A stretch of DNA of 64,000 nt, from NCBI RefSeq assembly GCF_009931435.1, contig NZ_CP043414.1, one strand, 5' to 3'. Positions 21,001-24,000 of this stretch are shown piece after piece; positions within the stretch are counted from its first letter, which is position 1; each line of letters opens with the position of its first letter. Origin of the DNA: Escherichia coli (GTDB lineage Bacteria; Pseudomonadota; Gammaproteobacteria; Enterobacterales; Enterobacteriaceae). Position numbers: made by a program.

Positions 21001-24000
21001 TTTCCTGTATTTATTTTCAGGGTGATTGTTTTTGCCCATCAACGCATTTCCAGAATATTTAAAAATAACCTGTCACCGAAACAGAATAAAGGCGCAATAA
21101 CCATAGCGGGAAAATATGCGCCTCTGGTAATCGACAGTGTTACTTCAGACAGTGAGTTTCCCATTCCTTGACTGCAAATGTATCCATCATACCTGAAATA
21201 TAGTCAACCACTGCTCGTTTTTTGCTGATTTTAAATATATAGGAATCTGGTTGGGGTAAGGTGAATTTAAGTTCAGGAGGCAGAAATTTATAATTCTCTC
21301 CTTCATTGTAAAAGTCATATAAATCCCTGATTATTTTATTTCCCCTGAACTCATAGGTGAGGATATTACGTTTTCGCATGATGACTTTAAAGAGAAGTTT
21401 TTTGAGCCCTTCGGATAACGCATTCAGTTTCCCGAATCCCAGTTCCTGAAAACCATTCAGGTTCGTTACTACAGAAATATCTGCAACGAGGCGATTGACA
21501 ATATTTGAAGTTAACTCCTTGCGGAATATGATGGCAAATTCTTCTGAGGTTTTCAGTAAGTTAGCCTGAAAAGCGGTGTTTCTCGACTGAGTAACGATTT
21601 CCCTGAACTGTTCCCTCGCTCCCCGGAATTCGTCAGAAATCTGAAACTCATATTCAATATCTTCAATCGTGACCATGTTCCTGCTAAGGGCATCTTCCAG
21701 GTCATGCGCGGCATAGGCAATCTCATCCGCGAGATCCATTATCTGCGCATCAATCGTTTTCTCTCCGGGATTCAGATCGAGCTGATTTTCAGCAAGCAGG
21801 TTAATGTAAAAATAGTAATCATCATCATAAATGAACTTGCCGGCAGTAGCTGCAGCGCGGGGGATGGGATACTTAACAACCGAAAGTAAACTACGGTGAG
21901 TCAGATTTAATCCGTTGCAGTATGAAAATTTCTTCTCCAGTTTTCTCAGGATACGTAGCGCCTGTGCATTGCCTTCATAGCCGCCGATTTCTTCAGACAG
22001 TTCATTAAGTAGTTTTTCACCGGAATGACCGAAAGGAGGATTTCCGATGTCATGCGCCAGAGCTGCCAGTTCAACCACCACCGGGTTAACCAGTTTGAGG
22101 TCTGACGCGATACTTCGGGCGATCTGAGCAACCTCAAGACTGTGCGTTAATCTGTTTCTGTTGAATTTTTCAGGATCAATTTCAAAAAGTTGCATCTTTC
22201 CCTGCAGCCTGCGAAATGATGATGAATACAGAATACGCGCATAATCCCGTTGATAATTATCCCGGCTTCTTGTTTCACCATCGGGGGACGGGTGCTCTCT
22301 GGTATCAGCAAGCGCACTGATAAGTTTTTGTTCCTGCTCTTGCGCAAATTCTTTTAATTCATTGCAGTACATATTTCTTCCTTTCTGGAGCATGTTACCA
22401 AATCAGAATACCGGATGAACAAAACTGGTGGCTACATCCTGTAGGGATTATGTATTAGTAAGCTCTGGCCATTAGTGCCATTTCAGGTTATGTGATCCTA
22501 CTCACGTAATATGGACACAGGCCTAAGTGAGGTTCTGGTTTTCAAATTGTTCCGGACTGAGGCCGCCACACCAACTGTGCCGCCGCCACCGATTGTAATC
22601 ACATTCGATATAATTAAACACCGTTGCCCGCATTATTTCCCGGCTGATAAAGTGTTCTCCATGGATACATTCCACTTTCAGCGAATGAAAGAAGCTTTCC
22701 ACGCAGGCATTATCGTAGCAGCAACCTTTTGCGCTCATACTTCCACGCAGATTATGCCGCTTCAGTTGCGCCTGATAATCTGCTGAACAGTACTGGCCTC
22801 CACGGTCCGTGTGAACGATAACGTTCCGGGGCCTCTTACGCCGCCACAGCGCCATCTGCAGGGCATCGCAGGCCAGTTGCGCCGTCATGCGTGGCGACAT
22901 TGACCAGCCAATAACGGCACGTGACCACAGGTCAATGACCACTGCCAGATACAGCCAGCCTTCATCTGTACGTAAGTACGTGATGTCTCCTGCCCACTTC
23001 TGGTTCGGGCCACTGGCGTAAAAATCCTGCTCCAACAGATTTTCTGACACAGGCAGGCCGTGTGCGCGGTAGCTGACCGGGCTGAACTTCCGGGAGGCCT
23101 TTGCCCTCAGTCCCTGACGGAGCAGGCTTGCCGCCACGGTTTTTACGTTAAAGGGGTAACCCTGAGCACGCAGTTCATCCGTCAGGCGTGGGGCACCGTA
23201 ACGCTGTTTTGACCGGGTAAAAGCCGCGAGGACAACGCTGTCGCAGTGTTGGCGGAACTGCTGACGCGTGCTTATCCTTGTCCGCCGCTGACACCACGTA
23301 TACCAGCCGCTGCGGGCCACCCGGAGCACGCGGCACATTGCTTTGATGCTGAACTCAGCCTGATGTTTTTCAATAAAGACATACTTCATTTCAGACGATT
23401 CGCAAAGTATGTCGCGGCCTTTTGGAGGATAGCCAGTTCCTCTGCCTGCTCCGCCAGTTGCCGCTTCAGGCGGGCATTTTCAGCGGCCAGTTCACTTTCA
23501 CGATCTGACGAACTCATTTGTTGCTGCAGTTTGCTGCGCCACGCATAGAGCTGTGATTCATACAGGCTGAGTTCACGGGCTGCGGCAGCAACACCGATGC
23601 GTTCAGCAAGTTTCAGGGCTTCACTGAGAAATTCAGGCGAATGCTGTTTACGGGGTTTTTACTGGTTGATACTGTTTTTGTCATGTGAGTCACCTCTGAC
23701 TGAGAGTTTACTCACTTAGCCGCGTGTCCACTATTGCTGGGTAAGATCAAGTCTTACTTACCCTGTGAACCATGTTGATATTGATACTATATTGACTATA
23801 TGCCATACAGGTGGTAATGATTAGTTACTACCATACAGGAAAAGGTAGAAAATGACTCTTTTGGTAACGGCTGAGTGTGTTGACGATCTGATAAACGATG
23901 TTCATCAAGCTATCCTAGCGGATGGACTCAGTAACGATCCTACAAAAGGATCAACTCTAGAGATTCTTGGTGCCTATCTTGTCCTTACCGACCCCCGCCG

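Follow-up and report, generated by a model that had tools for sequence, protein, structure and literature searches.

The closest described relatives of the element studied here are the IS3 copies of E. coli K-12 (IS3A-E, with insE and insF; IS3 family, IS3 group), each 1258 bp long, and IS3H, which occurs on Shigella sonnei pSS_046 and plasmids related to it and is listed in RefSeq as 'IS3-like element IS3H family transposase'. The helix-turn-helix of IS3-family transposases lies in the OrfA-encoded N-terminus (PMC2909936). The transposase, OrfAB, arises when translation of the orfA frame undergoes a -1 frameshift, and its DNA-binding helix-turn-helix is the part contributed by orfA. When an IS lacks a target duplication, this is recognised as a sign of IS-by-IS recombination or of an adjacent deletion (PMC11708052).

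We analysed a stretch of 64,000 nucleotides from an E. coli chromosome (contig NZ_CP043414.1; hereafter, the window), in which an IS3 copy lies in an island beside dsdCXA. We consider it probable that this copy is a dead, vertically inherited IS3/IS3H mosaic in a defence island and that its IRR side is the junction of a deletion of about 10 kb.

Extent and identity of the IS3 copy

The IS3 copy occupies positions 22493..23749 on the minus strand (1257 bp), with IRL at 23749 and IRR at 22493, and its transposase genes are oriented toward a dGTPase gene. The left terminal inverted repeat, IRL (23711..23749, minus strand; 39 nt), is identical to the canonical IS3 sequence. The right one, IRR (22493..22531, plus strand; 39 nt), has two substitutions that are lineage-specific when compared with the other copies at the locus, at IS positions 1222 and 1248 (22528 and 22502 in the window). 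The repeats are imperfect, with arms 72% complementary and TGATC...GATCA ends, and the ends align with those of K-12 IS3. A preliminary description of this DNA had placed the element at 22494-23749. Its identification as IS3 and its right end were correct, but the true left base is 22493, as the flanking trinucleotides given in that same description imply.

The copy shares with K-12 IS3 the ends, the 39-nt inverted repeats, the orfA/orfB layout with an ATGA overlap, and an A-AAG stretch. The alignment to an IS3 reference, which had been proposed as a check, revealed the loss of one nucleotide relative to the K-12 copies and otherwise the same layout. Overall identity to K-12 IS3 is 95.8%, rising to 99-100% outside a 180-nt patch in orfA. 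By the ISfinder convention, isoforms share about 95% or more nucleotide identity. The element would accordingly be named an IS3 isoform from its sequence, and its overall identity is borderline because of the patch. IS3 was matched in 4,685 of the 5,426 complete E. coli genomes searched, and the present copy is an ordinary one, previously annotated in RefSeq and inactivated.

The patch (23390..23569, minus strand) covers the 3′ half of orfA, with 93-98% identity to IS3H of S. sonnei pSS_046 and 70-80% to K-12 IS3. The repaired OrfA of the window carries the IS3H-type residues ...AAAARELSLYESQLYAWRSKLQQQM.... Outside the patch the copy is closer to K-12 IS3 than to IS3H (90-98%), although the overall identities to the two are similar (95.6% to IS3H). 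The element is thus an IS3/IS3H mosaic rather than an IS3H copy. No intact close relative of the mosaic was found at 98% identity or above outside this locus in E. coli chromosomes. Two plasmid copies that we examined were 93-96% identical in the patch and degenerate, and plasmid IS3H elements that carry no frameshift flag were 96.5% identical over the first 373 nt.

The orfA frameshift

The orfA remnant (23386..23684, minus strand) runs for 299 nt from its ATG (23684-23682) to a TGA (23388-23386) that overlaps the ATG of orfB (23389-23387), and the two ends are out of frame. Read from the ATG, the present frame consists of 23 codons followed by TGA (23613..23684, minus strand; TGA at 23615-23613) and encodes the peptide MTKTVSTSKNPVNSIRLNFSVKP. 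The deletion site is an A5C4 run (23652..23660, minus strand) at orfA codons 9-10, where K-12 IS3A, IS3B and IS3C have A6C4. The run is 10 nt long in IS3H, pETEC_80 and the FDAARGOS_944 plasmid copy, and 9 nt in the window. Adding back one A restores an uninterrupted OrfA of 99 codons. The length of 299 nt, the stop after 23 codons and the shift at about 23652-23660 had all been described before and hold in the sequence. Farther downstream, translation of the orfA frame could begin again only at a start that leaves 43 codons, without the N-terminal part.

In IS3, orfA (phase 0, about 99 codons) overlaps orfB (phase -1, 288 codons, with a DDE/rve domain). The copy has this layout but not its full coding capacity: orfB is intact and orfA is broken after codon 9-10. 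The conserved A-AAG-containing stretch CTCCAAAAGG (23418..23427, minus strand), in the orfA/orfB overlap region, and the sequence downstream of it are the same as in K-12 IS3. We take this stretch to be the site where IS3 shifts frame, as reported by Sekine et al. 1994. An Rfam scan of positions 21000-25000 found no family matching a frameshift signal, and its one snoRNA-like match was a chance hit below threshold. The orfB frame (22523..23389, minus strand) is open for 288 codons, and its product has rve, rve_2 and HTH_21 domains and matches NCBIfam transpos_IS3 at 336 bits. It differs from K-12 InsF at three of the 288 residues: R90L, which is private to the window, K285Q and A288T.

Because the lost A truncates OrfA to 23 residues, the copy would, from the biology of the IS3 family, make neither OrfA nor OrfAB and could not move by itself; the intact frameshift stretch is useless without an open orfA upstream. 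An autonomous IS encodes its own transposase, and with an orfA frame that stops after 23 codons this copy does not appear to do so. Its ends are intact, so other IS3 copies can still recombine with it, and their transposase might act on it.

The frameshift is inherited

The preliminary description had left room for an assembly error. Homopolymer indels are a common class of error, and in two strains, LR4 and B1-56, the IS3 at this IRR junction is intact and 1258 bp long. However, the 1257-bp copy with A5 was identical in all 16 independent assemblies compared, which came from different laboratories and years. The copies with A5 and the same IRL junction are L001-L003, L006-L015, L029 and L030 in our collection; one of them, L014 (CP001120.1), is a Salmonella enterica chromosome, presumably that of serovar Heidelberg SL476. 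A probe of 151 nt that takes in both the A5 run and the IRL junction was matched over at least 80% of its length in 259 of the 5,426 complete E. coli genomes, and the three full-length rows sampled from these matches were 100% identical to it. RefSeq (PGAP) labels the copy "IS3 family transposase, frameshifted". The LR4 and B1-56 copies, moreover, are not corrected versions of the window copy: they differ from it at about 50 sites, and have a canonical left half and a different IRL junction. An error is therefore extremely unlikely, and the frameshift is genuine and inherited.

Altogether, about 230-260 of the 5,426 genomes match the IS junction, and only 8 sites varied among 15 copies compared. 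At 98% identity or above, the IS3H-like patch was present once per chromosome among the matches listed, which suggests that this IS3 copy has not spread.

The two flanks come from different places

On the plus strand, the trinucleotides flanking the element are ATG (22490-22492) and AGT (23750-23752), so the absence of a direct repeat, which had been noted before, was confirmed. As a control, K-12 IS3B (1258 bp) has a 3-bp duplication, GAT/GAT. A canonical IS3 in strain MB19 likewise lacks a duplication. The missing duplication reflects insertion history and not the identity of the element.

We made the comparison with IS-free alleles that had been suggested, and the two flanks proved to be non-contiguous. 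Homology of the dGTPase-side flank (22394..22492) to IS-free alleles with dGTPase next to cdiB ends exactly at 22492, the deletion endpoint. Without the IS (L026, L028), this flank continues as TTGCCAGTGCG... into the cdiB/cdiA locus, and the continuation into cdiB was found in 41 genomes. The TS-side flank (23750..23851) is ancestral DNA upstream of a module headed by a thymidylate synthase-like (TS-like) gene and includes AGTCTTACTTACCC at 23750-23763. Its homology to the IS-free alleles of E. coli SCU-152 and Pantoea ends at the IRL tip, and to the left of it those genomes have the 3′ flank of hsdS, a type I restriction gene.

We considered whether AGTCTTACTTACCC, the 14 bp adjoining IRL, had been brought in by the IS or was left over from a second IS end, and rejected both ideas, as these 14 bp are ancestral DNA of the module. 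Their similarity to the IRL end is weak (best ungapped match 8/14, reached by 12% of background 24-mers). The two do share the 7-mer CTTACCC (0.6% of background 24-mers), which is only a lead for inverted repeat-like targeting.

The preliminary description had read the locus as an insertion, with the dGTPase gene on one side and the TS-like operon on the other. A simple insertion of IS3 into an existing intergenic region, with a 3-bp duplication that has decayed or was never made, would fit the shared first base of ATG and AGT. The duplication of K-12 IS3C is also imperfect (ATC/ACC), and strain EC2 has the dGTPase gene and the TS-like module adjacent without an IS. This explanation nevertheless conflicts with the IS-free alleles, in which the flanks lead into unrelated DNA (cdiB and hsdS) and homology ends exactly at the IS tips. 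No true empty site was found among the 232 genomes with the TS flank or the 325 with the dGTPase flank. EC2, the only allele without the IS that keeps dGTPase beside the TS-like module, does not supply one either. On the TS side it is missing 16 bp of ancestral DNA, which are present in SCU-152 with a difference of one base and in Pantoea in a diverged form. Because of this gap, and because EC2 shares 99.9% identity with the window to its left and to its right, its allele is best read as a derived, secondary deletion. A precursor-like arrangement with additional DNA between dGTPase and the IS also exists, as described below. We therefore regard simple insertion as very unlikely.

A probable deletion ending at the IRR tip

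In strain CS18F, the order is the dGTPase gene, 9,986 bp of other DNA, the same frameshifted IS3 and the TS-like module. The 9,986-bp segment contains cdiB, a cdiA fragment, an IS66 fragment, an arc operon and a VENN toxin fragment. A second genome (L008) also has the IS 9,986 bp from the dGTPase breakpoint. The window is the CS18F arrangement minus these 9,986 bp, and the deletion ends exactly at the IS3 IRR tip. The two arrangements and their endpoints are read directly from the genomes; the direction of the event, from the CS18F type to the window type, is what we infer. An earlier island would thus have carried dGTPase, cdiB, the cdiA fragment, the IS66 fragment, the arc operon, the VENN toxin fragment, IS3 and the TS-like module. 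Loss of the middle 9,986 bp, bounded on one side exactly by the IRR tip, would then have brought the dGTPase gene beside the IS. The target duplication would be missing because the IRR side is a rearrangement junction. As both arrangements carry A5, the frameshift would be older than the deletion.

Compared with the window, CS18F is 96.8% identical over 4.3 kb on the dGTPase side and 99.8% identical on the TS side. From these values CS18F is not the direct ancestor of the window arrangement, and the two flanks have partly different histories. The CS18F-type junction is itself without a duplication (CTG/AGT), so at least one earlier rearrangement has to be assumed.

The deletion could have arisen in two ways. 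The resident copy might have recombined with a second IS3 that had landed upstream of dGTPase, or its IRR end might have taken part in an intramolecular transposition for which the transposase acted in trans. The IS3 family uses copy-out/paste-in transposition, of which classical adjacent deletions are not a textbook outcome, and this counts against the model. Among the 5,426 genomes we found neither the original insertion junction (hsdS-IS3-TS) nor an IS3 at the dGTPase-cdiB site that would represent a reciprocal or an intermediate junction, and either mechanism may apply. Recombination between two copies does occur at this locus, as the LR4 and B1-56 elements show. They are chimeric: their markers are canonical as far as column 630, whereas those at columns 1214, 1223 and 1249 are of the resident type, and their IRL flank is 11 bp shorter.

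The same island could alternatively have been formed by homologous recombination between IS3 copies on two molecules, for example with an incoming island or plasmid that carried the TS-like module; this would be an island fusion and not an intrachromosomal deletion. The unequal divergence of the flanks from CS18F is in line with such an event, as is the IS itself, a recombinant IS3/IS3H mosaic. Near IRR, IS position 1213 varies among the dGTPase-adjacent copies, some being canonical there and others not. The genes around the TS-like module change between Pantoea, Klebsiella and Yersinia, so the module moves as a block. However, in CS18F and L008 a single chromosome already carries dGTPase and, 10 kb from it, this IS3 with the TS module, so a simple deletion suffices. 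No plasmid carrying the flanks was found, all 566 places with a flank being chromosomal. Fusion is unlikely for these reasons, and we prefer a deletion within one chromosome.

Neighbouring genes and their expression

The gene to the left of the IS, on the minus strand at 21140..22372, encodes 410 aa from the RefSeq start; a longer ORF begins at 22393. Its product matches the PADLOC dGTPase profile (364.7 bits, E 1.8e-109) and exceeds the cut-off of TIGR01353 dGTP_triPase (317 vs 152). It scores 284.8 bits with NCBIfam antiphage_dGTPase, below the 400-bit cut-off of that model. The profile match suggests a putative role in anti-phage defence. The conserved module to the right of the IS consists of the TS-like gene, an aGPT-Pplase3/ADDT gene, an XRE-M78 regulator and a MazG-like gene, the first two at 23852..25773 on the plus strand. 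The neighbours had been called nucleotide-metabolism genes. This did not stand: the dGTPase fits an anti-phage model, and the TS-like gene is paired with an aGPT-Pplase3/ADDT enzyme of a DNA-modification type in a defence island. By sequence, both neighbours look like defence-island genes and not housekeeping genes. Their adjacency would be due only to the IS3-anchored deletion of about 10 kb, and it should not be read as a sign that they are functionally paired or share an operon. The four-gene module, which has no characterised bacterial function, is more interesting than the IS3 copy.

It had also been suggested that the IS may alter the expression of its neighbours. The TS-like operon has a sigma-70-like core promoter in the retained flank right of the IS (23792..23821, plus strand; TTGACT, 18 nt, AATGAT), and relatives without the IS have conserved it; its -10 hexamer lies between two CCATACAGG repeats (23803-23811 and 23831-23839). 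A search of the IS and its surroundings for outward promoters and terminators gave nothing above the shuffle expectation, and we found no support for an effect on expression.

The persistence of the relic could be explained if it had been co-opted to regulate dGTPase or the TS-like operon, whether as an insulator or as a promoter that acts outward or by read-through. Its transposase genes point at dGTPase, no terminator-like site separates orfB from that gene, and two window-lineage substitutions lie within the last 36 nt of the right end. That end is, among IS3-family ends, the likeliest to gain promoters by point mutation (Pnew 0.23, PMC12095673). However, promoter activity of wild-type IS3 ends is undetectable in the same work, the promoter-like sites here numbered three against 1.8 +/- 1.2 expected, with none facing outward from either IS end, and the TS-like promoter is native. 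Hitch-hiking accounts for the persistence, given the few variable sites among the copies. Co-option is thus very improbable.

The IS3 copy as a junction in the island

Several alternatives to the IRR-dGTPase junction of the window were found: in two of them IRR abuts a VENN/CdiA toxin fragment or an IS1 end, in another a canonical IS3 has taken the place of the left half and the IRL junction has moved by 11 bp, and in a fourth the IS is lost together with 16 bp. The original hsdS junction would be a fifth. The junction between IRL and the TS module is invariant except in two derived variants, the chimera and EC2. One might propose from this that the dead IS3 copy is a standing recombination anchor that repeatedly reshuffles defence-island cargo, a proposal we rate as rather doubtful. 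If such relics systematically border exchangeable defence modules, they would be part of defence-island assembly, and selection rather than accident could then have set a dGTP-depleting enzyme beside a thymidine-modification-type module. The copy has little significance beyond annotation, and resequencing is not needed because the frameshift is a widely inherited pseudogene allele.

The locus would be a clean case, from nature, of an IS that is defective and yet goes on shaping its island by recombination. Junctions of this form are known from the Lenski long-term lines (PMC11708052). As in those lines, the IS is kept, one flank is original and the other new, there is no target duplication, and the deletion ends at the IS tip. 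In contrast to them, the IS in the window would have been already defective at the time of the deletion, so that it would have required either a second IS3 copy to recombine with or transposase provided in trans.

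Structure of the IS3 copy

Strand reading and the ORF list placed an IS3-type element of 1257 bp on the minus strand, from its left end (IRL, TGATCTTACCCA) at 23749 to its right end (IRR, ...GGATCA) at 22493. The preliminary description had given 22494-23749; its upper limit holds, but the start is one base off, as its own flanking trinucleotides give 22493. As the description said, these trinucleotides, ATG (22490-22492) and AGT (23750-23752) on the plus strand, do not form a duplication. The imperfect terminal inverted repeats of 39 nt (22493-22531 and 23711-23749) were intact in a comparison of copies except for two substitutions in IRR.

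The ATG of orfA lies at 23684 on the minus strand, and a TGA at 23388-23386 overlaps the ATG of orfB (23389). Both the 299-nt distance from the orfA ATG to this TGA and the end of the ATG frame after 23 codons, at a stop in 23615-23613, were borne out by the minus-strand reading and the ORF list. In the downstream orfA frame, the first start leaves only a 43-codon remnant. By its reading frame, orfB (23389-22523, minus strand) is open over 288 codons, and its product carries rve and HTH_21 domains with a transpos_IS3 match of 336 bits.

Origin and consequence of the frameshift

The shift had been mapped to an A5C4 homopolymer (23660-23652), correctly so: in alignment with K-12 IS3A, the sole length difference is one A fewer than in an A6C4 run, and re-inserting this A restores an uninterrupted OrfA of 99 residues. 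A6C4 is also present in K-12 IS3B and IS3C, and IS3H and two plasmid relatives have 10 nt at the run where the window has 9. IS positions 181-360 (window 23569-23390, the 3' half of orfA) showed 93-98% identity to IS3H of Shigella sonnei pSS_046 versus 70-80% to K-12 IS3, while the rest of the element was 99-100% identical to K-12 IS3. By these alignments, the element is an IS3/IS3H mosaic.

An assembly error, raised as a possible source of the shift, is contradicted by independent copies, population matches and PGAP calls. Across 5,426 complete E. coli genomes, the best matches were also 1257 bp long, lay between the same two genes, and were labelled "IS3 family transposase, frameshifted" by PGAP. 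The A5 run, an equal length and an equal IRL junction were found in 16 independently assembled copies (loci L001-L003, L006-L015, L029 and L030 opened from other genomes), with L014 on a Salmonella enterica chromosome (CP001120.1). With a 151-nt probe spanning both the run and the IRL junction, 259 genomes gave matches to 80% or more of the probe length, and the full-length rows sampled were 100% identical. The frameshift is thus genuine.

Among 15 copies compared, only eight sites varied; three of them are common to the window and a sub-lineage of S3, 98193, S1-IND-01-B and locus L006, and OrfB R90L is the one change private to the window. The IS3H-like patch (at least 98% identity) occurs as a single copy in every chromosome among the matches listed. 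In the plasmid copies opened, the patch was 93-96% identical and the copies were degenerate. This IS3 copy has not spread.

In the IS3 family, the transposase OrfAB arises by -1 frameshifting out of the orfA frame. In IS3, an A-AAG stretch was reportedly described by Sekine et al. in 1994 as the site of this shift. Because orfA stops after codon 23 and OrfAB starts in its frame, both products would be lost, and the element is expected to make neither OrfA nor OrfAB. In IS911, it is the N-terminal helix-turn-helix of OrfAB, encoded by orfA, that binds the inverted repeats (PMC2909936).

Neighbouring genes and their expression

The flanking genes had been described as nucleotide-metabolism genes, a view contradicted by defence-model matches and by the island context. 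The dGTPase gene (21140-22372, minus strand) scored 365 bits with the PADLOC defence dGTPase model and stayed below the cut-off of the NCBIfam antiphage_dGTPase model. Its start is ambiguous, with the longest ORF from 22393 (417 aa) and the RefSeq ATG at 22372 (410 aa). On the IRL side, the TS-like gene (PF00303, 88 bits) comes first, then the genes of an aGPT-Pplase3/ADDT protein (302 bits) and an XRE-HTH/M78 regulator (PADLOC PD-Lambda-2_B, 104 bits), then a 108-aa ORF; in related genomes a MazG-like gene is annotated just past it. Copies of this conserved five-gene module (23852-27700) occur in E. coli, Pantoea, Klebsiella and Yersinia and always adjoin variable defence genes, which in the latter three are type I RM, Mrr-like or HNH genes. 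TS-like homologues of 72-76% identity were also listed from Serratia and Cronobacter, gene context aside. Thymidine-hypermodification enzymes are known in phages. The island adjoins dsdCXA. The neighbours therefore appear, from their domain matches and setting, to be defence-island genes rather than housekeeping genes of nucleotide metabolism; aGPT-Pplase and MazG are predicted, unvalidated defence domains (PMC13092281).

Elsewhere in the window, the MazG-like gene and hsdR are separated by an ISL3-family transposase gene fragment (27891-28433); Pantoea relatives have a P4-type integrase gene in that position. The segment 29010-37814 comprises a type I restriction-modification operon (hsdR-like DEAD helicase, hsdM and hsdS), then an AAA ATPase matching PDC-M55A, NsnB and AriA, and a 313-aa ORF. 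The high-GC multidrug-resistance region at 42000-64000, within the chromosomal island, carries blaTEM, a Tn3-family tnpA with a serine recombinase, merA, IS21-family istA/istB, sul1 and aadA1, and we interpret it as Tn21-like with a class 1 integron.

The suggestion that the IS alters expression of its neighbours found no support, as both keep native upstream DNA and no outward promoter was found. The TS-like operon retains 102 bp, including a promoter-like site (TTGACT-18-AATGAT, 23792-23821) conserved in IS-free relatives, and the dGTPase gene retains 99-120 bp. A promoter scan returned three sites, with 1.8 +/- 1.2 expected by chance; none of them pointed out of either IS end, and terminator-like sites were absent. 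No promoter activity is detectable at the ends of wild-type IS3, although the right end readily evolves a promoter (PMC12095673). Read-through out of the IS toward dGTPase is possible; nothing supports it.

Two direct CCATACAGG repeats (23803-23811 and 23831-23839) lie on either side of the TS-like -10 hexamer. The repeat has no further occurrences in the 64 kb, and two copies were reached in 1 of 100 shuffles. The pair may be an operator of the XRE-M78 regulator, which is encoded divergently.

IS-free alleles

Simple insertion between the dGTPase gene and the TS-like operon is contradicted by the IS-free alleles, whose flanks run into different DNA. The dGTPase-side flank was carried by 325 genomes, about 43 of them without the IS (8 of 60 sampled rows); there ...GGTTATG continues directly as TTGCCAGTGCG... 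and then into a cdiB/cdiA locus. On the TS side, E. coli SCU-152 and Pantoea have the 3' flank of a type I restriction hsdS left of AGTC..., and homology to the window ends at the IRL tip. Since one flank continues into cdiB/cdiA and the other into the hsdS flank, the two were never neighbours in any IS-free genome. The island has also been reordered, as hsdRMS is upstream of the TS-like module in SCU-152 and Pantoea and downstream in the window.

A search with the joined flanks found them contiguous in one genome only, EC2 (NZ_CP041955.1, locus L004, 6130-6140), the only complete genome with dGTPase directly beside TS-like. We rejected EC2 as an empty site: the 16 further bases missing there include AGTCTTACTTACCC, the 14 bp beside IRL (23750-23763), whose counterpart is AGTCTGACTTAGCC in Pantoea and AGTCTTACTTACCT in SCU-152. 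Because these IS-free relatives keep that stretch next to the TS-like gene, and both sides of EC2 match the window at 99.9% identity, EC2 reflects secondary loss of the IS with 16 bp of TS-side DNA. This deletion is bounded by 2-bp TG microhomologies, and the EC2 dGTPase gene is annotated as frameshifted.

The 7-mer CTTACCC is common to AGTCTTACTTACCC and the IRL tip in inverted orientation, making a near-palindrome with the IS end; such a match occurs in 0.6% of background 24-mers. Insertion beside IR-like sequences is described for IS911, and the 7-mer is a weak hint of such an event here.

The probable deletion junction

In strain CS18F and locus L008, the order is H-NS, a hypothetical gene, dGTPase, cdiB, a cdiA fragment, an IS66 fragment, the arc operon, a VENN toxin fragment, the same frameshifted IS3 and the TS-like module. 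The window has this arrangement minus exactly 9,986 bp, from the IRR tip to just past GGTTATG, with the caveat that the dGTPase side of CS18F is only 96.8% identical. The IS3 copy thus probably sits at a deletion junction, which would explain the missing target duplication. As A5 occurs in both arrangements, the copy was already defective at the time of deletion. The CS18F-type junction also has no duplication (CTG/AGT), so an earlier, hsdS-removing rearrangement must be assumed.

The deletion could have taken two routes. A canonical IS3 might have landed upstream of dGTPase and then recombined with the resident copy, or transposase from another IS3 might have acted on the IRR end. The two are not separable, because an intermediate junction was absent from the 5,426 genomes. 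There is a precedent at the same locus for the former, two-copy route. LR4 (L024, NZ_CM188749.1) and B1-56 (L025, NZ_AP040249.1) carry an intact 1258-bp chimeric IS3 (locus 2244-3501) at the same IRR junction. In this chimera, markers are canonical as far as column 630 and of the resident type at columns 1214, 1223 and 1249. The IRL junction is moved by 11 bp, and the IRL flank has no AGTCTTACTTA. This structure implies that a second IS3 inserted 11-14 bp from the resident IRL and then recombined.

Breaks have recurred on the IRR side of this copy. In L015 (2560-2641), an IS1 end with its last 2 bp absent abuts IRR. The IRL/TS junction is invariant except in EC2 and LR4-type derivatives. In L008 (1814-2641) and L030 (4337-14323), the DNA at the IS3 right end is a VENN/PT-VENN CdiA toxin fragment with the arc operon before it.

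The original observation is thus confirmed, and its interpretation is right as to the frameshift and the missing duplication. It is wrong as to artefact, simple insertion and gene nature, and an expression effect has no support. This IS3 copy is an ordinary pseudogene that was annotated already, and it lies at a deletion junction. A missing duplication is classically explained by an IS that stays at the edge of a deletion, where one flank is old and the other new (PMC11708052), and K-12 IS3B, a simple insertion taken as control, has a GAT/GAT duplication, as expected.
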